From a virus: a DNA stretch of 24,034 nucleotides. The stretch lies in UHGV virus genome UHGV-0029496, one strand, 5' to 3'. A program made the position numbers and the translations under genes. The notes under the pieces were generated by a model. The model was given only the letters and a program-made list of their open reading frames with translations. It ran no database searches and had not been told where the DNA came from. This document shows, piece after piece, positions 3,936 through 23,294 of this stretch; within the stretch, counting starts at the first letter, position 1, and each line of letters begins with the position of its first letter.

Positions 3936-5306
3936 TTAACCGTCCACATTAAAGTCGATACGAGTGATGTATTTACTACCCCACACGGAATCTGCCTGTG
4001 GAATAATGGCGTAATCATCTACAGCCGGAACGTTCACCATGGAGCCATCTGAATAGGCAATGTCGATACTTGTTGCGCCGTTCATTACTACTTTTGCTGA
4101 TGCCGTCGTGCGCGTTCCTGGTGACAATTCGGTTACTATCGGGGACGAGGCAAAGCCGCGTTTTTCTATTTGCGGATTGAAAACAATAATTCCGCTAATA
4201 CCATCTCCCTGAAATGAGCCGTTTGTTGCAGAGGCGTATAGCATAACCCTGTACTGAGCTGATAACGAAGATAGCCTCGATGCGTCGAAAGATATTGATA
4301 CAGACGCATAACCACCAAGATCCGCAATAGATGCCACTCCACCGAACGATGATTTGATAACTTTGCTATCAATGTCTGCAACAACAGATGCGACGTCAAA
4401 ATTATCCGAGTTTCTTATATATAATCTTAAAAAATCCAAACCATTACCAGCCGCTATGACGCTGAATGTAACATAATCTTCTGCATCTAATTGCATGTTT
4501 TGAGAAAAGTAATGAGACCCGCTGGTTGTAGTAGCGATCACTGAAAATATATCCGATGTAGCTTCTCTATTGACTGTGACGTTTGTTAGTGAAGAAGATG
4601 AAATGTCTCCTGAATTTATATAAAGATTTTCAGAATAATATTCTGGAGGCACCCGTCCGACAGCAACCCCATCGATAAACGTAAGGGGCCATTCATTTAC
4701 GGCGGACTGCACAAGATTACCGTTTCGGTTGATGTAATAAACCTGCGGCCCGTCATACACAATGCGACTATCCAGCGTGAGCGCCAGAAGGTTGATCGGC
4801 GGATAGCCGGCTGGCCCTTCATCGCTCCTGATGCGCGGGAACGTAGTCTCATAGTTCGCGTATACTTTCAGGAAACTACCCAGACAATCCCCGTAACAGC
4901 CATACAAATCTGGCAGATTCTTAGTAAGACATGTGTCTTCCTGAATTGCTGTGCGCTCTGCTGTAGCAGTAAACGTAATGACCCAGTTTTTACCGTCGTC
5001 TGTGCTATCGCTAATGTCGGACGTAATAAGAACCTTGTGGTCTTCGATACCTAAACCGGTATCATGAGGCATGATGAACGAAGATGCCCCGCCGTCTATG
5101 TTATTCAGGAAGCTATAGAAAGCCTGACGGCCTAGTGACGATACGACCAGGGTAACGCTAATAGGTACCGGTTCGAAGTATGTATCACGCCCCTGTCGAG
5201 GCACGCCACCTTGCACTTCTGTACGCCAGATATTACTCCCTCGCGTTTGGGAGTACCCCTTCGACACTATTGGTCGAAGGGACATAGGGAATCTCAAATC
5301 ACTCAT
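3936..5306 (-). CDS. Distal tail protein, gpM-like N-terminal domain with long C-terminal extension
   Basis: 456 aa directly after the tape measure gene; N-terminus has the GYSQ motif seen in lambda gpM (GDGYSQRAP); about 340 extra residues, partly encoded by a visibly AT-rich segment (about 4380-4700). Confidence 0.55.
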   Translation of the reverse strand: MSDLRFPMSLRPIVSKGYSQTRGSNIWRTEVQGGVPRQGRDTYFEPVPISVTLVVSSLGRQAFYSFLNNIDGGASSFIMPHDTGLGIEDHKVLITSDISDSTDDGKNWVITFTATAERTAIQEDTCLTKNLPDLYGCYGDCLGSFLKVYANYETTFPRIRSDEGPAGYPPINLLALTLDSRIVYDGPQVYYINRNGNLVQSAVNEWPLTFIDGVAVGRVPPEYYSENLYINSGDISSSSLTNVTVNREATSDIFSVIATTTSGSHYFSQNMQLDAEDYVTFSVIAAGNGLDFLRLYIRNSDNFDVASVVADIDSKVIKSSFGGVASIADLGGYASVSISFDASRLSSLSAQYRVMLYASATNGSFQGDGISGIIVFNPQIEKRGFASSPIVTELSPGTRTTASAKVVMNGATSIDIAYSDGSMVNVPAVDDYAIIPQADSVWGSKYITRIDFNVDG

Positions 5307-7619: not shown

Positions 7620-7983
7620 CTTCTCTGCCCTCAAATATTCCGTCTAAGCCCATGATAACCTCGGCTTCGAACAAACTTATGCCGTAACCGGCGACATCAC
7701 GAAACGCTACCAAATCTTGCCATTTGAGCGCATCGCGCGGGATTATAACGATAGTATCATCTGTTTCGCGCTGTAGGAATTTAATGGCACGGTATTTCTC
7801 GAACACGTCGATAAGAGAAACGGGGCATTCTGGCCCCGTCGCTTCTTTCATCTGCGGTTCTTTAATCACGCCCATTGCAATCAAAGCCGCCTGGTGCCCT
7901 GCCGCGATGTCGTCGAATTGCTTACGTTTGTGGCGGTCGACAAAGCACCATTGCGCAAACTCATACAGCGCTTTTACTTTTCC
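7612..7983 (-). CDS. Tail assembly chaperone -1 frameshift extension (gpT-like), expressed as a G-T fusion
   Basis: The -1 frame relative to the G ORF is open from 7998 to the stop at 7612-7614 and overlaps the last G codons; slip candidate G-GAA-AAG at 7977-7983 (minus strand) just before the G stop. Confidence 0.45.
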   Translation of the reverse strand, partial: GKVKALYEFAQWCFVDRHKRKQFDDIAAGHQAALIAMGVIKEPQMKEATGPECPVSLIDVFEKYRAIKFLQRETDDTIVIIPRDALKWQDLVAFRDVAGYGISLFEAEVIMGLDGIFEGREDG

Positions 7984-8390
7984 GAGAGTTTCTCGCGGCT
8001 ATCAGTATGGTGCTTAACTACGGCTTCTGCCAGTCCGCTGTACTGGTCAAACAGGTTAGCCAGCGCCTCTTTGCTGAACGGTTCGTCGAATGACCAACCG
8101 GTGACGATTTCCACGGCAAGCTGCTTGTTCAGGTCCATCACCCGCCAGCCCTTCTCATCGTTATAGCGCGCCCAGTTATTCAGTGCCTCGCACTCTTTAT
8201 CTAATGGCGCAAGTTCTTCCGTAAGGCGGCGAATTGCCGTTGTGTAGGCGCGGCCCGCACGAACACCCGCGTCACAATCGGGGCCAATGACCTGCAACCA
8301 TTCGCCGGAGTCCTTACCACTCGGCAGAAGGATAGGCATTTTAGTGCCGGCGGCGTGGCGGTCGGCAAAATAGAAATCAGAAAGTTTCAT
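7974..8390 (-). CDS. Tail assembly chaperone (gpG-like)
   Basis: 138 aa acidic protein immediately upstream of the tape measure gene; AAGGA SD before ATG 8390; followed by an overlapping -1 frame ORF. Confidence 0.55.
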   Translation of the reverse strand: MKLSDFYFADRHAAGTKMPILLPSGKDSGEWLQVIGPDCDAGVRAGRAYTTAIRRLTEELAPLDKECEALNNWARYNDEKGWRVMDLNKQLAVEIVTGWSFDEPFSKEALANLFDQYSGLAEAVVKHHTDSREKLSEK

Positions 8391-8482
8391 TCTTTAATCC
8401 TTTGGTTAAGAGGTTACGGGTTAAGGTTGACGCGCCAGACGGGAACCACCCGCTTTTCGTGTGCGACACTAGGCGCAAACTT

Positions 8483-8516
8483 ATTCTAGCACACTACTTG
8501 CACACCCCAATATAAT
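8483..8516. promoter_or_regulatory. Divergent promoter candidates in the 164-bp gap between the chaperone gene (minus) and the plus-strand cassette
   Basis: Plus strand: perfect TATAAT at 8511-8516, about 40 nt before ATG 8555, weak -35. Minus strand: TAGAAT (plus 8483-8488) with TTGGGG 16 nt upstream. Confidence 0.25.
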
Positions 8517-8554
8517 AGGGTACTATTCACCTGTAACTTACTGAGGAAATAATT

Positions 8555-8881
8555 ATGCGTAAATTAGTATTAGCTCTGGGGTTTATGTCTTTTGCGGCTT
8601 TTGGGTCCTCGTGCGAACAGGCATTTAGTGAATCTGTTCTTATGACTTCTGGTGTGCTTGAGAAAGCCGACCCTACTATTGTAAAGGCATTTAGGGACTC
8701 TACCGTTCGCGAGTGTGAGGCCGCCGTGGAGGTTGGTAAATCGGGCCTACCCCCGCAAGCCGTAACATACACGGTAATACGTTCGGTAGAGAAAAACGGA
8801 GATGCGTTTTACAGCCTACTGACAGCCACCCGTCTGCAAATGGTAATGACGGGTTGGGCAGTAGGCGCAGAAAGTAAATAG
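8555..8881 (+). CDS. Small secreted protein or possible lipoprotein
   Basis: GAGGAA SD 6 nt before ATG; N-terminus MRKLVLALGFMSFAAFGSSC is a classic signal peptide with Cys at 20 (non-canonical lipobox); three Cys in total. Confidence 0.6.
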   Translation: MRKLVLALGFMSFAAFGSSCEQAFSESVLMTSGVLEKADPTIVKAFRDSTVRECEAAVEVGKSGLPPQAVTYTVIRSVEKNGDAFYSLLTATRLQMVMTGWAVGAESK

Positions 8882-8945
8882 TTGCCTTTATTTAAAGAAC
8901 GCACTGTGGCTAAATAGGACAAATCCTAAACACGAGGAAGTAAGT

Positions 8946-10076
8946 ATGGCCCAGAAGAAAATAACCGACGAACAGTTACAGGAAGAATTGAACGCCGGGA
9001 TGAAGAATATCGACATCGCACGTAAATATGGCATCTCAGACCGCGTTATTCGTATCCGTAAAGCGAAGCTGGCTAAGAAAGGTGTAGGCCACGGGCGTGA
9101 CGTTAGTCACCTTGTGCCGGACGGTTACAAGATTAAAGGAACGTCGTCACTGGTGGACGAGTTCGGCAACACTAAGTTGCAATGGGTTAAGACCGACACC
9201 GATGCCGAACGTCAGGTCGAATTGATGAAAGCCGTAATCGAAGGAATGAAGTCAGAGATTACGCCAGTTGCGCCTGTTAAAGCCATTCGCGCTAAACGCG
9301 ATGACAAGCTACTTAATCTTTACACGGTATCTGATTTTCATCTCGGTATGCTGGCATGGGCGGATGAGAGCGGCGACGACTGGGATATGAAGATTGCGGA
9401 AGACCTGTTCTCCCGATGGTTCGACGCGGCATTCCAGAAAGCACCGGATGCAGGAACAGGAGTTATTAATCTGTTAGGTGACTTCGCACACTTTGATAGT
9501 CTTGATGCCGTTACGCCCGAGTCGTGCCATGTGCTAGACGCGGATACGCGCTACCAGAAACTTGTCCGCTACATGATTCGCATGGTCCGCCGTGTTGTTG
9601 ATATGGCGCTGGTTAAGCATAACACCGTAAAACTTTTAATCATTCAAGGTAACCACGACCCTGTCGGCTCCGTATGGCTGTCCGAAATGTTCTGCACATT
9701 GTATGACAACGAACCTCGCGTATTTGTGGACACCTCCCCCGACGTATACAAGATGGTTCAGCACGGGAAAACTACACTATTCATGCACCACGGACACCGT
9801 GCGAGATTCGACGCCATAGAGTCGGTAATGATTTCTAAATTCCGTAAGGCTTTCGGAGAAAGCACATACAGCTACGCCCACGTAGGCCACCTGCACCATC
9901 AGAAGATTGTAGAAAGCCGTAACATGATTGTTGAGCAACACCGCACCTTAGCGGCTAAAGACGCCTACGCCTCTCGCGGCGGATGGATGTCAGGCCGTAG
10001 CGCGAATGTAATTACTTATAGCGCCGAATATGGTGAGGTCGCTCGTTTAACTATTTCACCGGAGATGCTGGGATGA
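8946..10076 (+). CDS. HTH domain fused to a calcineurin-like metallophosphoesterase (Mre11/SbcD-like motifs)
   Basis: GAGGAAG SD; N-terminal HTH-like segment IDIARKYGISDRVIRIRKAKL; motifs DFHLG (DxH), GDFAHFD (GDxxD), GNHD, HHGH, GHLHH in the canonical order. Confidence 0.7.
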   Translation: MAQKKITDEQLQEELNAGMKNIDIARKYGISDRVIRIRKAKLAKKGVGHGRDVSHLVPDGYKIKGTSSLVDEFGNTKLQWVKTDTDAERQVELMKAVIEGMKSEITPVAPVKAIRAKRDDKLLNLYTVSDFHLGMLAWADESGDDWDMKIAEDLFSRWFDAAFQKAPDAGTGVINLLGDFAHFDSLDAVTPESCHVLDADTRYQKLVRYMIRMVRRVVDMALVKHNTVKLLIIQGNHDPVGSVWLSEMFCTLYDNEPRVFVDTSPDVYKMVQHGKTTLFMHHGHRARFDAIESVMISKFRKAFGESTYSYAHVGHLHHQKIVESRNMIVEQHRTLAAKDAYASRGGWMSGRSANVITYSAEYGEVARLTISPEMLG

Positions 10077-10303
10077 CTTCAAAATACAACCGCACAATGA
10101 CAAACACCCACGGCAGCACTATGACTGTAGACGTTTACGATGTTCTCCGTGCTTTCGACATCCGCGACCCAGCGCTACAGCACGCATTAAAGAAACTGCT
10201 GTGCATGGGCTTGCGTGGTCACAAGGACACCGGGACCGACTTAGCGGAAGCGATTGAAAGTCTGGAGAAGTTACAGGAATACCGGAGTAATATTGATGAG
10301 TAA
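10073..10303 (+). CDS. Small hypothetical protein, translationally coupled to the phosphoesterase gene
   Basis: ATG overlaps the upstream TGA (ATGA at 10073-10076); 76 aa, helical and charged (DPALQHALKKLL...DLAEAIESLEKLQE). Confidence 0.55.
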   Translation: MTSKYNRTMTNTHGSTMTVDVYDVLRAFDIRDPALQHALKKLLCMGLRGHKDTGTDLAEAIESLEKLQEYRSNIDE

Positions 10304-10451
10304 GAAAAAGCGAACCCCAAACAACAACAACAACAACGTCCCGTATACCCCGCTGCCGTTTCCAGAGCCTAACAAGCCCTCGCCGCTTATGTCGGACAAC
10401 GAATGGCGGCGGGTCGCCAGAATGACCATCCGCCTGAGAAGACTGGCTTGA
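10296..10451 (+). CDS. Small Asn/Pro-rich basic protein
   Basis: ATG 10296 with GGAG 9 nt upstream, overlapping the end of the previous ORF by 8 nt; 51 aa MSKKKRTPNNNNNNVPYTPLPFPEP...; contains the (AAC)6 tract. Confidence 0.4.
   Translation: MSKKKRTPNNNNNNVPYTPLPFPEPNKPSPLMSDNEWRRVARMTIRLRRLA
10320..10337 (+). repeat. Perfect trinucleotide microsatellite (AAC)6, in frame (Asn6)
   Basis: aacaacaacaacaacaac read directly. Confidence 0.9.
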
Positions 10452-10463
10452 CCGATAAATAGT

Positions 10464-10483
10464 AAGGCCCTGAAAGGGGCCTT
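10464..10483 (+). terminator. GC-rich hairpin after the three-gene operon (weak terminator or attenuator)
   Basis: aaggccc-tgaaag-gggcctt, 7-bp stem, no clear U-tract. Confidence 0.3.
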
Positions 10484-10496
10484 ATCGCAACAGGAG

Positions 10497-10991
10497 ATGA
10501 TTATGGACTGGAATGAATTTTTCATATACGACTTAATTTCAGGAAGGATATTTAACAGAGTAACACGTTCCGGGAGGGCTAAGGCTGGAGAGGAGGCAGG
10601 TACGGTACAGCGAGACGGATATAGAAGGATATTTTTCAGGGGTAAATGGCACGCGGCGCACCGTATAGCTTGGGACTTAAACAATACTAACAATAAGCTA
10701 ACCTCGTCAGATCAAATAGACCATCTAGACCATAACCGAATAAACAATAGGCCGCTTAACTTAGCTAAAAAGTCCAATGCGGAAAACCATAAAAATATGT
10801 CAAAACAGCGTAATAATAAATCAGGAGTAACCGGGGTTTACTGGAACGCGAAAGAAAGGTTGTGGTACGCACAGATATTCAACAATAACGTAAAAACACA
10901 CATCGGGTGCTTTAAAACGCTACTAGATGCAGTTGCCGCAAGGAGAGTTGCTGAAAGAGATTTAGGGTTCCACGAGAACCACGGTAAATAG
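10497..10991 (+). CDS. HNH homing endonuclease with C-terminal AP2-like DNA-binding domain
   Basis: HNH core AHRIAWDL...IDHLDHNRINNRPLNL; C-terminal GVTGVYWNAKERLWYAQI...IGCFKTLLDAVAARR is AP2-like; Asn-rich and AT-rich codon usage unlike neighbours. AGGAG abuts ATG 10497, so ATG 10503 may be the true start. Confidence 0.75.
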   Translation: MIMDWNEFFIYDLISGRIFNRVTRSGRAKAGEEAGTVQRDGYRRIFFRGKWHAAHRIAWDLNNTNNKLTSSDQIDHLDHNRINNRPLNLAKKSNAENHKNMSKQRNNKSGVTGVYWNAKERLWYAQIFNNNVKTHIGCFKTLLDAVAARRVAERDLGFHENHGK

Positions 10992-10992
10992 T

Positions 10993-11016
10993 AAGGCCCC
11001 TTTCGGGGCCTTTTCC
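10993..11016. terminator. Bidirectional rho-independent terminator between convergent genes
   Basis: aaggcccc-tttc-ggggcctt followed by ttttcc on the plus strand; also U-rich on the minus strand. Sits between the plus HNH stop (10991) and the minus major tail stop (11017). Confidence 0.7.
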
Positions 11017-12183
11017 TTACGCGTAGCTAATACGCTGTATTACAATAGAAGATTGATATTGATTGCCTGTGGACTGTCCTTCTATGCTCTGAGTTATTGA
11101 TTCTGGCCCCCCAATCTCTGGTGTAACCGCCGTAAGTTCTGCGCGTTTCAGGCTGAAAGACATAGCCCCGTTTACCCCGGCCAGAATAGAGTTAATCTCC
11201 ACCTGCTGTTCGTTGATAAACTTCTGAATCATCACCATGTCGTACAGCTTGCCGGAGATAGAGAAGGTGTTAGCCGCGCGACCACGTTCCACGAACGCAA
11301 CGCTACTGTTGCCGAGTTCGAACTGTGCGGAAGCACCGTTGTCGTTGGTGATGGTCAGAGTATCGCAACGCAACGGCGTAGAGCCGTCGAACACAGACAC
11401 ATCTACAGATGAGAACGGCTCATCGGTAAACGTCACCTGAGAGAAATCAGAGCCTGCTGGCGGTGCGGTAAGAATCTCCTGACTCAGGCCGATGAACGGG
11501 AAGCTGCCAGTTACCATAGCGTTAACCGCCTGCTCTACGGTGAAGCCGGAGATTTCCACGCCTTTGGTGAGCATATACGCGTCCGGGTTGCCGCACTGGC
11601 CCTTGAACCACGTCAGGATGGAGAACGTCTTACATGCGTTACCGGTTTCCAGCTTGTCACCCGTTTTTGCGTCAGTGGTTACTGTCTCAGCCGTTAGCGT
11701 GTGCTGAATGCCAGCACCCGTAACTACCAGAGCGGAAACCGCAGTTACGATGAACGGTTTGGCGTTGTCGCCGGTTAAGCCGGTGAACGCAATCAGGTCG
11801 CCAACTTCTACGCCGTCAGTGACGAAGCTACCCGCCGCGCGAGTGAACGTCTTGCCAGTTGGCTCTACAGTGATGGACGCGCCCGTAATTTCTGCCCCAG
11901 CCTGCCATGTAGAAGTCATCGCGCCTGCAAGGAAATCATCCTGGCTACGGGAGCTAAGTTCAATAGCATACTCCCCGCTAACCTGCTTGTTACCGGTTCG
12001 GATGGATGTAGTTTCACGGCTGCCGTCGAGTTCGTTGGAAGTAAGCGCATCGCGGGTTACGGCAGGAACGCCGCCAGTGTTACGCAACGGTGACCATACC
12101 GGGTTAGTCGGTGTTACGCCCGGGGTAGTTTCCGCCACATAGAATTGCGCGGTATTCGCGCCCTTAAAAGGAGTTGTAGCCAT
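11017..12183 (-). CDS. Major tail (tube) protein
   Basis: 388 aa Thr/Gly/Ser-rich beta-type protein after the neck genes; AAGAGG SD before ATG 12183 (track start is GTG 12189); TGAATATG junction with the upstream gene. Confidence 0.6.
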   Translation of the reverse strand: MATTPFKGANTAQFYVAETTPGVTPTNPVWSPLRNTGGVPAVTRDALTSNELDGSRETTSIRTGNKQVSGEYAIELSSRSQDDFLAGAMTSTWQAGAEITGASITVEPTGKTFTRAAGSFVTDGVEVGDLIAFTGLTGDNAKPFIVTAVSALVVTGAGIQHTLTAETVTTDAKTGDKLETGNACKTFSILTWFKGQCGNPDAYMLTKGVEISGFTVEQAVNAMVTGSFPFIGLSQEILTAPPAGSDFSQVTFTDEPFSSVDVSVFDGSTPLRCDTLTITNDNGASAQFELGNSSVAFVERGRAANTFSISGKLYDMVMIQKFINEQQVEINSILAGVNGAMSFSLKRAELTAVTPEIGGPESITQSIEGQSTGNQYQSSIVIQRISYA

Positions 12184-12185
12184 AT

Positions 12186-12602
12186 TCACAGCCTCTTGGT
12201 GAATGCAATAAAGTTAATAGACAATGGTCGTTTGGCCCATCCGTTCTCTACAATCAGCGGCCCCAGGCTAACCGATTGAACCTCGGCGCAGATGTCGTTA
12301 CGTGAAAATGACTTACCTGCTTTAAACGCCGTGTTAAGTAAGTCTGCCATTTTATTGATTGGCGCGCTACCTTTCACCGATGCGTAGTTAATGTCAACCT
12401 GATAAATACCTGAGCGTTGTTCCGTGAAGAACAAATCAGCCTGCTCGGTATCCGCAAGTAACATGTAACTTGCCAGATACGGAGTATCGGTTGACGTCGG
12501 CGCGTCGATGTTTTCAAGCGCGACCTTGATGCCGTTGGTGGTTCCGAAGGCTACCAGTGGCACATCGAACGCTTTTGTTAAGTCCTCAAAGTAGCCCATC
12601 AT
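12186..12602 (-). CDS. Neck protein, tail-terminator-like by position
   Basis: 138 aa; start overlaps upstream stop (ATGATGA); immediately upstream of the major tail gene. Confidence 0.4.
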   Translation of the reverse strand: MMGYFEDLTKAFDVPLVAFGTTNGIKVALENIDAPTSTDTPYLASYMLLADTEQADLFFTEQRSGIYQVDINYASVKGSAPINKMADLLNTAFKAGKSFSRNDICAEVQSVSLGPLIVENGWAKRPLSINFIAFTKRL

Positions 12603-19349: not shown

Positions 19350-20831
19350 TTACTGCTGATTGGCGTCCTGTTGTTGCGCCGACTGCGGAATCTCTCCTGA
19401 TACCTGAGCAACAGCACCTAATGGTAGGGGTGCGTCCTCAATCGCAGTCTTAATCTCCTCGTCAGTCCAGTCAGTAACCCCCGCCTTACGCAATGCCGCG
19501 TAGTAAGCAGTAGCGGGTAGCAGGCCGGCGTTAATATCCGCCATCCACTGCGCTCGTTCGGGCGCGGTCATCGGTTGCAGGAAGAACTCCATATTCAGTT
19601 TGAACTCAATCTCTGTGCCTTCACGCAACCCTAACATCGCAGCTACCCAGCGCAGCGCATCGGTGTACGCCATGCTTACGTTACGCGCGATTGTCGCCAT
19701 AACAGACGTGTCAGCACCACGTTGCAGGCGGGCCGATTCAGCGGTGATTTGCTGTGTCGGGGTGATAAGCTGCGCGCCAATCTGGATGGCCTGATTCTCT
19801 TTATCCAGCATGTTCTGTTTGGCGAGGTTATTCTCTCCCGCCTGGACCAGAAACGCGTTGCCGCCGTACCCGATGTTATGACCCGAACGTGACCCCATGC
19901 GCACGCCGTGGGGGTTGGCTTCTTTCCACTGTTCTATGCCCATGTTCTCCCCCGGGGCGATGAACAGAGTAGGCTGGCCAACAACGAAGCTGGACTCCTC
20001 ATTGTCTGCGCTGTTGCGGAAATGCCCAATATTAAGCTCAGCCAACGGCAGTAGAGGCGCATCGTCGATGGTCGCGTCGTTGTTGCTCGCCCCGATAAAC
20101 GTGAACGGGATTTTGCCGCGTAACTGTTCCCCAAGTTCCGGGAATATTTCGATTACTTCATCCTGGGCACCACCTTCGGCATCGAATCTGTAAATGCGCT
20201 GGCGGTAGCGCCCGTCAATCAGGTCAAGGACGCGGTATTGTTCACCGAACTTGGTTTCGAACTCTGCACCGGGTTCTGAGTATTCCCATACCTCACGCAG
20301 CACGACCATCGTCACGCGGTTAACTGAACCGACGCGAGTCAGTCGCCAGTTGATGATGTTCTCTGCGGTGTAGAATGCGATGACCGGGTTTAATAATCCA
20401 GCATTCTGTTCGGCCGCCGTGGCCGCAGCAGTCTCCGGGGCATCAACCAGCAACCCACCGCGGCCTACAGAGTCAATCTCCATCAGCGTATCCTGCGCGT
20501 GCTGCCACAGACCAACACCGGAGCCGTCCGCATTGCGTAACAGGTACTCCAGTTCAGGCGGAATAATTTGTTCCGGGTCTTTGCGCATCACCGACCCCAC
20601 CATCCCCGCCAGGGTACGCTTAGTGAAGTTGTAGCAGATAGCACCGTTCTCGTATTCTTCCTGGCGCTGGGCCGCGTAGGTCGGGTCAGGCTCATTCTTT
20701 CCGACGTTGCGAAGATAGCGAATAATGTCGCCTTCCAGAGCGTGGCGTACCTTCTGCCATTTATCGAAGTGATGCAGCCATTCCCGGTGTTTTGTCTTAA
20801 CACCTTGATTCTGACCGTTCATAGTTAACAT
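19350..20831 (-). CDS. Portal protein
   Basis: 493 aa between the terminase/HNH genes and the Mu-F-like gene; GGAG SD 9 nt before ATG 20831; size and position typical. Confidence 0.8.
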   Translation of the reverse strand: MLTMNGQNQGVKTKHREWLHHFDKWQKVRHALEGDIIRYLRNVGKNEPDPTYAAQRQEEYENGAICYNFTKRTLAGMVGSVMRKDPEQIIPPELEYLLRNADGSGVGLWQHAQDTLMEIDSVGRGGLLVDAPETAAATAAEQNAGLLNPVIAFYTAENIINWRLTRVGSVNRVTMVVLREVWEYSEPGAEFETKFGEQYRVLDLIDGRYRQRIYRFDAEGGAQDEVIEIFPELGEQLRGKIPFTFIGASNNDATIDDAPLLPLAELNIGHFRNSADNEESSFVVGQPTLFIAPGENMGIEQWKEANPHGVRMGSRSGHNIGYGGNAFLVQAGENNLAKQNMLDKENQAIQIGAQLITPTQQITAESARLQRGADTSVMATIARNVSMAYTDALRWVAAMLGLREGTEIEFKLNMEFFLQPMTAPERAQWMADINAGLLPATAYYAALRKAGVTDWTDEEIKTAIEDAPLPLGAVAQVSGEIPQSAQQQDANQQ

Positions 20832-20835
20832 AGTC

Positions 20836-21450
20836 TTACTCCGTAGTTAGTTTACGATATACAGCCGCGCACTTTCGCCCGCAGGTGACACGAGGTTTAT
20901 AGCGGTTATGCTCGTGAGTAGCGCCGCAGACGGGGCATATAGCTGTTACGTTATCTACCCCCGAAGCCCGTCTATGTGCCGCTAAGCATCTTTTAGAACA
21001 AAAACAATTCTCGCCCTTTGTCGGTATGGCCGTAAACTCTTTGTTGCAATAAGAGCATATTTTTTCAACCTTAACGTGAAGTTTGTCTTTTGTGGCTTCG
21101 TAATGTGCCTTATGCCACTGCCGGCCTGCTTCACTGGCGTGCCACTCTTTAGTTAAATGCTGGTGCTTGCGGCCCATTTCGGCCGACCTGGCACGCGCTT
21201 CATCAGTAGAGAAATGCAGATAGCTATGGTCTGACGCCGAAAGCATCTCTAGGTTTTCTATTTGATTATTTGAGCGGTCTTCGTCTTTATGGTGGATGTC
21301 ATACCCTTCTGGGATTTCCCCGTTGAAATATGACCATACAACTCTGTGCAACCTTTTAACAATTGATGAGTTCATAAAATAGTTACCACACAAATAGTAA
21401 CGCGTACCGTTAAATTCTTGGATTGTTGGGGATATAACTTTTACTCGCAT
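20836..21450 (-). CDS. HNH endonuclease with C-terminal Cys-rich zinc-ribbon region
   Basis: HNH core YDIHHKDEDRSNNQIENLEMLSASDHSYLH; Cys clusters CSYCNKEF, CFCSKRC, CPVCGATHEH, CGRKC. Track start is TTG 21477; ATG 21450 follows an AGGAGG SD. Confidence 0.8.
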   Translation of the reverse strand: MRVKVISPTIQEFNGTRYYLCGNYFMNSSIVKRLHRVVWSYFNGEIPEGYDIHHKDEDRSNNQIENLEMLSASDHSYLHFSTDEARARSAEMGRKHQHLTKEWHASEAGRQWHKAHYEATKDKLHVKVEKICSYCNKEFTAIPTKGENCFCSKRCLAAHRRASGVDNVTAICPVCGATHEHNRYKPRVTCGRKCAAVYRKLTTE

Positions 21451-21506
21451 ATAGCCTCCTGATTGTTTACCTGACAATATCAGTAAGACCGATGCGAGTA
21501 AATACG

Positions 21507-22742
21507 CTATAACGTGAATCTGACAGGAGTGTTGATAACAGGGCGGACAACAGGGAACAACCTATGCATACAATAACCTAAACTGTCGTTCCAGTCGTCG
21601 ATAGCCGGGTGAGTTTTAAACTTCTCCGGTTCACCATTATCGTTATACCCCTGCGTCTCCAGTGACTGCGTCAATTTAGGGCATTTTGAAGTGTTAACCC
21701 TCAAACGGCTATGTGACAAAAGAGCGTTAACCGCGTTTATTCTGTCTTTAACGAATGGGTTCTTACTCGGAGCGTTAACACGTAAGCCGGCCTTTTCGAT
21801 GATACCTATGTCGGATAACGATGCGTTAGTGTGGCCTGAGCGACCAGAGGCGTCAGGGTAAACCGTAACCGTATGGCCCGGATACCGTATCCTGACATTA
21901 TTGACGAAGTCGTCGGTATTATGGCTGACAAACTCATCAACAACCGTCGGGTTGCCGTCTTCGATAATGCTCACGGTGGCGCAACAGCCGCCGATGTTAA
22001 AGTCCAACCCTATGTGCAGAGCGTCTCCGTTCTGCAAGGTGCGAGTGGAGTCATGTGTGTTTCGTTTGAAATAGTGATACACCTTATTGGCCGTCAAACT
22101 GACAAATTCACCGTTGATATACATATCAGCCAAAGCCGCGTCGTAGTTCCTTCGTATCTGCTCGACGTAGCCGTCAGGTAAATATGGGTTCGACAATGTA
22201 GACGCCTTAATCAGTTCCGTAGAACTGTCAGCGTTAGTAACCCAATAGTCATACACAAATCCGGAGAATCCCTGGTCGGGCGTAGTCACGGCGGCAATAC
22301 TGTTCCCGCCCCTACATGGCTGTCGGGTGCGCTCTGAAATTTTACGCCACACCAGGGACGCCTGTTCTTTAGTAAGAACGTCAAGTTCATCGGCGACAGA
22401 ATGGGCTACTTCAAAAGCGATTAGACGGTTCGGGTTGTCATAGGACCTGAAAAACATAGTACCGTACCCCTTAACATGGATACTGTATTCCGATTTGTTG
22501 AGGTCATACTTAAGCCCCATCATATTCAGGTCATCAACCACACCAGGGATGGCGCGCAGCTTCAACAGGTCATATGTAGGCATGGTGTACAGGGTGTTTA
22601 TCCCGCGCTCGCGCAACATGAGATACAGGAGGCGCATAGTGGCCGCGCGGGACTTGCCCGCCCCCAGTCCAGCGACAATAGCTGGATGTGTCTTTGTACT
22701 GAATACAAAGTCCTGTTGGGGTTCTGTTAATGGAATATCCAT
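21507..22742 (-). CDS. Terminase large subunit
   Basis: Walker A GLGAGKS near the N-terminus, Walker-B-like LIAFEVAHSVADE, C-terminal Asp-rich nuclease-like region; TAATG overlap with the upstream small ORF. Confidence 0.85.
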   Translation of the reverse strand: MDIPLTEPQQDFVFSTKTHPAIVAGLGAGKSRAATMRLLYLMLRERGINTLYTMPTYDLLKLRAIPGVVDDLNMMGLKYDLNKSEYSIHVKGYGTMFFRSYDNPNRLIAFEVAHSVADELDVLTKEQASLVWRKISERTRQPCRGGNSIAAVTTPDQGFSGFVYDYWVTNADSSTELIKASTLSNPYLPDGYVEQIRRNYDAALADMYINGEFVSLTANKVYHYFKRNTHDSTRTLQNGDALHIGLDFNIGGCCATVSIIEDGNPTVVDEFVSHNTDDFVNNVRIRYPGHTVTVYPDASGRSGHTNASLSDIGIIEKAGLRVNAPSKNPFVKDRINAVNALLSHSRLRVNTSKCPKLTQSLETQGYNDNGEPEKFKTHPAIDDWNDSLGYCMHRLFPVVRPVINTPVRFTL

Positions 22743-23254
22743 TACTCGCCCCCCGGTTTAACAGCCTTAACGAAACGAATCTCGATAGGTTCAGAACCCT
22801 CGCCAGTCGATTCTTCTTTCTTATTCAGGCCCAGCTTCGCGGCAGCAAACGTAGCAGAGATACCCGCGGCCCCTGTCTCAGTGAAATACGCCTCTTCCAG
22901 CGCCTGTGCTGTCTCCCAGGCTTCTGCAAATGCGGGAATCTCGCGCAGCCACAGTTTGATAATCGGGATGGTGACGCCGATGTGTAAGGCGAAGCGGGCC
23001 AGTGACGGCGGTTTATCCTGAATCAGCGGGCGCTCGTCACCCTTAGACGTAGGCACAAGTTCCCATGACGTGCGGTCGAAGAAACGAATCAATTCGTCAC
23101 AATAGTCCGGGTCCCACAACGCGGCGGAATTACGGGATGATTGATAAAGGCTCTGTTTGCCGCGCGGTCGTTTACGGCGACGGTTTGCGCTAACAGCTTC
23201 TTCATGTGCAGCTTGCACCACCTCTGGCGATGGCTGCTTGAGTTTCAGCTTCAT
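22742..23254 (-). CDS. Terminase small subunit (by position and HTH-like segment)
   Basis: Directly upstream of and overlapping the large terminase gene; basic N-terminus (RRRKRPRGK) and helix-turn-helix-like LARFALHIGVTIPIIKLWLRE. Track start is GTG 23293; ATG 23254 follows an AAGGGGA SD. Confidence 0.5.
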   Translation of the reverse strand: MKLKLKQPSPEVVQAAHEEAVSANRRRKRPRGKQSLYQSSRNSAALWDPDYCDELIRFFDRTSWELVPTSKGDERPLIQDKPPSLARFALHIGVTIPIIKLWLREIPAFAEAWETAQALEEAYFTETGAAGISATFAAAKLGLNKKEESTGEGSEPIEIRFVKAVKPGGE

Positions 23255-23294
23255 AGAATCCCCTTGCATATGCGTCTGACCATCAGAGCGCACC

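Follow-up and report, generated by a model that had tools for sequence, protein, structure and literature searches.

Free-standing endonucleases in which an HNN- or HNH-type nuclease domain is joined to an AP2 domain are a recognised class in phages, known from the Xanthomonas phages Xp10, OP1 and Xop411, from T1, Rtp and T5, and from RB16 and RB43 (PMC2248197; PMC3022922). An HNH-AP2 protein of Trichodesmium erythraeum (Magnani et al. 2004) is cited in both papers. The gene that we analyse here encodes the same arrangement, a cysteine-less HNN-type HNH domain followed by an AP2 domain, and matches the class in the boxes HR.AW, DH, DNR, NL and EN; like the genes of that class it is free-standing and patchy in its distribution (PMC2248197; PMC3022922). 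It differs from the copies of Xoo phages, which are reported to occupy varying sites and to have no conserved flanks, in that its lineage keeps to one site across genera and is linked to an allele of the flanking sequence.

The best match in both sequence profile and structure is I-HmuI, the HNH nicking endonuclease of Bacillus phage SPO1 (1U3E), at an identity of only ~21%. The two proteins share an N-terminal β-sheet, the HNH/His-Me core and the D-H...N...N residues, and both do without zinc-binding cysteines. I-HmuI, however, is encoded within an intron and has a helical C-terminal part of the helix-turn-helix type, whereas the gene described here is free-standing and intergenic, and its product ends in an AP2 domain.

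The gene itself is already known, since a near-identical copy in GenBank carries a homing-endonuclease annotation. In coliphage vB-Eco-KMB36 (hereafter KMB36; OR525703) the product WQN07554.1, labelled 'HNH homing endonuclease', represents the same gene at the same site, is 98.8% identical and is annotated from an upstream start that brings it to 179 aa; equivalent ORFs lie at the same site in Ro145clw and 536P11. A paralogue of the same architecture (590B UCR96557.1; Ro145clw AUX83754.1) is 39% identical over its full length, ends in GFHENH and belongs to the same plus-strand cassette but sits elsewhere in it, with the exonuclease gene on one side and a gene for a 76-aa protein on the other; it is absent from the DNA studied here. 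This second AP2-HNH gene encodes 156 aa (2016-2486 in loci L004 and L007 of Ro145clw; 2175-2645 in locus L003 of 590B), and in Ro145clw the 76-aa gene has an endonuclease gene to either side. What we add is mildly new: a defined cassette with a linked allele, fidelity to one site across genera, and a caution against reading composition as a measure of recency.

Genomic setting

The window, by which we mean the whole stretch of 24,034 nucleotides that was analysed (UHGV virus genome UHGV-0029496), derives from a Kagunavirus (Guernseyvirinae) coliphage. Its structural genes lie on the minus strand and are interrupted by a short plus-strand cassette, which is bordered by the minus-strand gene for a tail assembly chaperone (7974-8390). 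The cassette opens with a 108-aa ORF (8555-8881; phrog_14165) and continues with a gene for a calcineurin-like 'DNA repair exonuclease' (8946-10076) and the 76-aa ORF (10073-10303), all on the plus strand. The endonuclease ORF (10497-10991, plus strand) lies in the intergenic gap that separates the preceding cassette gene from the convergent tail-tube gene (11017-12189, minus strand); it is the last plus-strand gene there, in agreement with the initial annotation, which had placed it at the close of the cassette. A consensus scan for σ70-like promoters found none just upstream of the endonuclease gene, and its sole match on the plus strand (8526-8553) lies at the head of the cassette. The endonuclease gene would thus be expressed by read-through. 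We note that the first gene of the cassette is variable: the 108-aa phrog_14165 ORF is present in the window and in Bas71, KMB36 and Ro145clw encode a 63-aa 'putative immunity protein' instead, and fFiEco03 has a 109-aa superinfection immunity protein.

Domain architecture of the protein

A free-standing endonuclease with an HNH core and an AP2 domain had been proposed from inspection of the sequence. Taken alone, single-sequence Pfam scores are equivocal, both domains falling below their cut-offs (HNH_3, 21.4 bits against a gathering cut-off of 24.8; AP2, PF00847, 15.5 bits, E 0.022, against 33.3), and a search of NCBIfam with the ORF gave no match. The whole protein, however, matches PHROG 99 'HNH endonuclease' at 5e-49, and Pfam detects HNH_3 in 21 of 21 relatives (best E 1.7e-17) and AP2 in five of the 21 at E ≤ 0.01. 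A family profile built from 21 aligned homologues and searched against the PDB matched I-HmuI (1u3e; 4e-10) with positions 38-102 and the AP2 domain of Arabidopsis WRI1 (7wq5; 3e-5) with positions 110-155, TEM1 and AtERF1 coming next. Six residues (D75, H76, N84, N88, L89 and N100) are invariant among the 21 homologues and N97 is nearly so; in the alignment with I-HmuI, the invariant residues fall on its nuclease motif DH...NL...N. The residues that this class uses for catalysis and metal binding are present, namely an Asp-His general base pair, a structural Asn and a metal-binding Asn.

The AlphaFold2 model agrees with this reading. Its mean pLDDT is 86.4, and it consists of two well-defined domains separated by a linker of low confidence (residues ~100-112). 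The first contains a ββα-metal fold (strands 73-76 and 89-92, helix 94-101; pLDDT ~87-93), and the second, AP2 part is made of three strands (114-117, 122-129 and 132-139) and a helix (142-156). When the model was compared with the PDB by Foldseek, the top match was again 1u3e (E 1e-3, probability 1.00, 104 columns), followed by the AP2 domains of TEM1, WRI1 and AtERF1 (rmsd 1.1-1.9 Å, probability ~1.0). Family profile, PHROG, model and Foldseek thus concur in bearing out the proposed architecture. As judged from profiles and model, the protein has an N-terminal I-HmuI-like HNH domain made up of a β-sheet and a DH...N...N His-Me finger, a flexible linker and a C-terminal AP2 domain. The profile, the invariant columns and Foldseek place the HNH core, a His-Me finger of the I-HmuI/HNH_3 type, at residues ~38-102 (10608-10802, plus strand), and the profile, Pfam in relatives, the model and Foldseek place the AP2 DNA-binding domain at residues ~108-156 (10818-10964, plus strand).

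Start codon, selection and base composition

Counted from its first ATG, the ORF has 164 codons and a stop. A Shine-Dalgarno sequence, AGGAG (10492-10496, plus strand), directly abuts that ATG (10497) and lies 6 nt before a second one at 10503. The true start is probably ATG 10503, which would give a protein of 162 aa, because the closest orthologues are 162 aa long and begin at the equivalent Met.

Comparison of the gene copies found 5:2, 7:2, 9:3 and 16:3 synonymous to non-synonymous codon differences, the last against Ro145clw. Because these differences are mostly synonymous, the protein is under purifying selection. This bears on the idea that the gene is a decaying remnant of a homing endonuclease that has lost its ability to cut, a course that has a precedent in the degeneration of HNN-AP2 genes after invasion in Xanthomonas phages (PMC2248197). 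One of two further copies, found in IMG/VR contigs, does carry a frameshift in its AP2 region, caused by a 2-nt (AC) insertion (IMGVR_UViG_3300010279_000003; locus L022, ~2900), which represents either decay or an assembly error. The copy in the window, by contrast, is full length and lacks none of the conserved residues, six of seven copies are intact, and the differences between copies are of the kind just described; we give decay the slightest chance of the explanations considered here. The gene in the window is instead probably a typical and active homing endonuclease gene.

The gene had been described as conspicuously AT-rich and Asn-rich compared with its neighbours, and the computed values confirm that its composition does not match that of the rest of the window. 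At 0.418 (window, 0.511), its GC content is the lowest among 28 candidate genes, with a z of -2.6 relative to all 495-bp windows, 1.2% of which are equally low. Asn makes up 12.1% of its product; for the remaining genes above 60 aa the range is 0-7.6%. Just three troughs account for the low-GC 495-bp windows, and they correspond to the AP2-HNH gene, a second HNH gene and part of a distal tail gene.

The second HNH gene is a free-standing ORF of 213 aa on the minus strand (20836-21477; phrog_15471, 2e-42; GC 0.452) with a Cys-rich C-terminal part, situated between the genes for the portal protein (19350-20831) and the large terminase (21507-22742). It is present in one of 127 related records (Ec1-ASingh, PQ561395.1); the others have a gap of ~664 bp. 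The deepest GC trough of the window (4081-4800, minimum 0.386) lies inside a minus-strand ORF (3936-5306) for a 456-aa tail or virion protein, the N-terminus of which matches phrog_384 and the C-terminal 330 aa of which match phrog_11600 (function unknown). This protein looks like a swapped distal-tail or receptor-binding module.

Orthologues at the same site

The initial annotation had read the unusual composition as a sign of recent acquisition, and this reading is not supported. Orthologues that are 65-76% identical in amino acid sequence (P0002, P0005 and P0009) occupy the same place in three other Guernseyvirinae-like contigs, one of them Cornellvirus-like, whose tail-tube proteins (PF18906, Phage_tube_2) are 72-75% identical to that of the window. 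These orthologues are just as AT-rich and Asn-rich, with GC contents of 0.42-0.43 against 0.51-0.53 and 10-12% Asn, and in the alignment of 21 homologues many Asn belong to conserved motifs. Because distant orthologues at the same site share both its GC and its Asn content, the odd composition of the gene is a stable trait of the lineage rather than a mark of recent arrival, and we have rejected it as an acquisition clock.

Each orthologue is the last plus-strand gene and is followed by the same hairpin and then by the tail-tube stop codon. Upstream, each has a different neighbour (a YebO-like 59-aa ORF, a 75-aa ORF or the exonuclease gene), and what the endonuclease gene is tied to is therefore the end of the tail-tube gene and the hairpin, and not the cassette.

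Insertion boundaries, hairpins and the 51-aa ORF

The initial annotation had suggested comparison with relatives lacking the gene as a way of defining the insertion boundaries, and an exact empty site is available in Bas71 and 590B. There the stop codon of the 76-aa gene is followed by a single hairpin, AAGGCCCCGAAAGGGGCCTT, and then by the tail-tube stop codon. Blastn junctions and the junction sequences show that, relative to the empty site of Bas71, the window has 682 bp of extra DNA (10311-10992, plus strand), made up of a segment with a small ORF and the HNH cassette. In the other carriers the insert is a unit of 529 bp, comprising ribosome-binding site, ORF and hairpin, with the hairpin on both sides. 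Within the 24 kb there are only two copies of the hairpin, where none is expected by chance, and both fold stably. The upstream copy, the GC-rich terminator hairpin AAGGCCCTGAAAGGGGCCTT (10464-10483), has one stem mismatch and forms the left recombination boundary of the HNH cassette; the downstream copy, AAGGCCCCTTTCGGGGCCTT (10993-11012), serves as terminator for both the endonuclease gene (plus strand) and the tail-tube gene (minus strand).

The two hairpins are contained in a 34-nt direct repeat with plus-strand arms at 10453-10486 and 10982-11015, 529 bp apart. The 11-13 nt that lie 5' of the upstream hairpin (10453-10463, CGATAAATAGT) duplicate the final codons and stop codon of the endonuclease gene (10982-10992, CGGTAAATAGT), and this copied 3' end is absent from the other carriers. 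Its presence in the window suggests that an HNH 3' end and hairpin were already in place when the segment with the small ORF recombined into them. In the upstream hairpin, the window, 536P11 and both IMG/VR contigs have the resident loop GAAA, and KMB36 and Ro145clw have the cassette loop TTTC, which suggests that the left crossover points inside the hairpin differ.

The small ORF (10296-10451, plus strand; phrog_17117) is a separate reading frame of 51 aa situated after the 76-aa gene and ahead of the HNH cassette; its ATG falls within the final codons of the 76-aa gene, and it contains a run of six Asn (N6). The product shares 56% identity with a hypothetical protein known from Seuratvirus phages (CAjan AJT60542.1), and the GC3 of the ORF, 0.71, is the opposite of that of the endonuclease gene. 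The segment (10311-10452) is absent from KMB36, Ro145clw, 536P11 and both IMG/VR contigs; neither the phage collection nor IMG/VR gave a DNA match to it or a further Kagunavirus with the 51-aa ORF, and a scan of IMG/VR found no relatives of that ORF. Exact-sequence look-ups in the assembly collection found neither the 51-aa ORF nor the endonuclease ORF. The 682 extra bp are two separate acquisitions, because the 51-aa segment is unique to the window, Seuratvirus-like and opposite in GC3 to the endonuclease gene.

Distribution and the linked flank

Matches to 8400-12300 at 60-95% identity were found in 248 related phage records. The endonuclease gene is present in five of these (KMB36, 536P11, Ro145clw and two entries for Ro145c2YLVW) and in the two IMG/VR contigs, which have the same junctions, always at this site, and the five records are 98-99% identical to the window in the protein and 96-98.7% in the nucleotide sequence of the gene. 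Between carriers the HNH DNA is 96-100% identical, compared with 75-92% in the flanks. The three cultured carriers match the window at 96-100% identity over ~10476-11099, and identity falls to 75-91% to the left and 65-95% further to the right.

The conserved stretch extends beyond the gene into the first ~72-100 bp of the 3' end of the tail-tube gene, where we find an HNH-linked allele of ~72 bp (11017-11088, minus strand), a probable co-conversion tract and a candidate region for targeting or immunity. Compared base by base, this end has 0-1 mismatches in its first 60 bp among the three GenBank carriers, and the first ~60 bp are also identical in both IMG/VR contigs; the same 60 bp have 9-15 mismatches, nearly all synonymous, in eight of eight non-carriers. 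Beyond ~90 bp into the tail-tube gene, carriers and non-carriers are equally distant. The ~72-bp allele is thus common to all carriers and was seen in no non-carrier compared (n = 8). When, in a search for a donor lineage, the carrier allele was compared by eye with the contigs that hold the orthologues, the diagnostic positions were mixed.

The left flank behaves differently. The 76-aa gene of 536P11 groups with that of the non-carrier PDP21P8 and differs from those of the other carriers at 24-29 of 120 positions, which leaves this flank unlinked to the endonuclease gene. In these alignments the terminator hairpin and ~72 bp of tail-tube sequence travel with the gene, and the left flank does not. 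At least 26 related records align over at least 80% of 8400-12300, a stretch that takes in the exonuclease gene, the 108-aa and 76-aa genes and the flanks of all three, and the junction between the 76-aa gene and the tail-tube gene is matched in 468 records, whereas only five records carry this endonuclease gene. The suggestion that the gene is the mobility agent behind the cassette therefore stands in part. The gene does look mobile, being patchily distributed, having an exact empty site and being more conserved in its DNA than in its flanks, but we reject the idea that it brought the cassette, which is widespread without it and whose adjoining flank is unlinked to it in carriers. We take the distribution and the DNA identity together as evidence for recent spread within Kagunavirus.

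The same distribution speaks to whether the gene has been domesticated as a phage factor, be it a terminase-assisting HNH protein, an enzyme that nicks DNA or a transcription regulator of the AP2 type that works at the terminator separating the cassette from the tail operon. HNH proteins that assist the terminase are known from HK97-like phages, AP2 domains are transcription factors elsewhere, and the gene is situated inside the structural module and adjoins a bidirectional terminator. It is, however, absent from ~98% of close and viable relatives, so it is not essential for morphogenesis or packaging, and we have rejected a terminase-helper role on that ground; it is also far from the terminase genes (21507-23293), and its nuclease residues are intact. 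We regard domestication as very improbable.

Other occupants of the junction

The junction next to the tail-tube stop codon also receives other DNA. In fFiEco02 and fFiEco03 it is occupied by an unrelated 210-aa ORF in reverse orientation (minus strand; 2223-2855 in locus L009 and 2076-2708 in locus L011), which the notes of these records call an I-HmuI-like HNH protein and the C-terminus of which is AP2-like by eye. PDP21P8 (locus L014), which is unannotated, has, as judged from its junction sequences only, an insert of the same 803-bp size with similar ends. In SZH-1 and VIPECOTPH05A the junction holds unrelated 58-aa ORFs that share the ATGAGTAAG start of the 51-aa ORF of the window, and in many records of Salmonella Jerseyvirus it is split by larger inserts. 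The hairpin may thus be a general hot spot for recombination that has no need of a nuclease.

These occupants bear on the main rival explanation, that the gene is passive cargo of the 'moron' kind, a gene-plus-terminator cassette that moves by homologous or illegitimate recombination at the hairpin and the tail-tube gene, its nuclease being inactive, irrelevant or put to some other use. The 58-aa ORFs of SZH-1 and VIPECOTPH05A and the 51-aa ORF of the window are inserts without nuclease domains at the very same junction, the split Jerseyvirus junctions point the same way, and plain recombination would also leave a duplicated hairpin and a linked flank. Against this, the invariant catalytic residues and the predominance of synonymous substitutions indicate a protein under selection, the position beside the tail-tube stop codon has been kept across genera even though the upstream neighbours change, and differences crowded into the ~72 bp beside the gene are what the target and immunity allele of a homing endonuclease classically show. 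We consider passive carriage unlikely.

Discussion

We present evidence, from sequence comparison and a structural model, that the gene is most likely a functional free-standing homing endonuclease gene whose product has two domains. Nuclease activity, a target site and spread driven by the nuclease, as opposed to plain recombination, are what we infer from that evidence. The AP2 domain would anchor the endonuclease on DNA, and in a mixed infection the enzyme would nick or cut the allele without the HNH gene, close to the hairpin or to the 3' end of the tail-tube gene. Recombinational repair from the carrier genome would then copy in the gene together with the ~72 bp of the carrier tail-tube 3' end, with the left crossover resolved inside the hairpin. 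The synonymous differences within the ~72-bp stretch presumably make the carrier resistant, a role suggested by the 9-15 differences per 60 bp that separate its allele from those of non-carriers. We note that the similar apparent end of the tract in all carriers is as compatible with a single acquisition and subsequent ordinary recombination as with repeated homing.

It is conceivable, though we think it rather improbable, that the AP2 domain docks on the G/C runs of the hairpin stem (GGCCCC/GGGGCC) and that the tethered HNH domain cuts the adjacent 3' end of the tail-tube gene. The full 20-nt hairpin, AAGGCCCC-GAAA-GGGGCCTT, is identical in the empty sites of Bas71 and 590B and in the three distant Guernseyvirinae-like contigs, and binding to poly(dG)/poly(dC), reported by Magnani and colleagues in 2004, offers a lead. 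If this were true, the terminator would be a conserved landing pad, and repeated breaks would explain why the junction is a hot spot across the subfamily for different endonuclease genes and for small ORFs of foreign origin, the Seuratvirus-like 51-aa ORF among them. The endonuclease would then shape its neighbourhood, although in an indirect sense only.

The significance of the gene goes little beyond annotation, in that the ORF now has a secure name and a corrected probable start. Nevertheless, the mobile unit is defined as the 529 bp between the hairpin copies plus ~72 bp of linked tail-tube sequence, and the AT-richness of a homing endonuclease gene, as this case illustrates, cannot be read as recent arrival. 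Lastly, cultured coliphages provide natural occupied (KMB36, Ro145clw and 536P11) and empty (Bas71 and 590B) alleles of the site, which would serve for testing homing by an AP2-HNH enzyme, a class whose targets have rarely been mapped.
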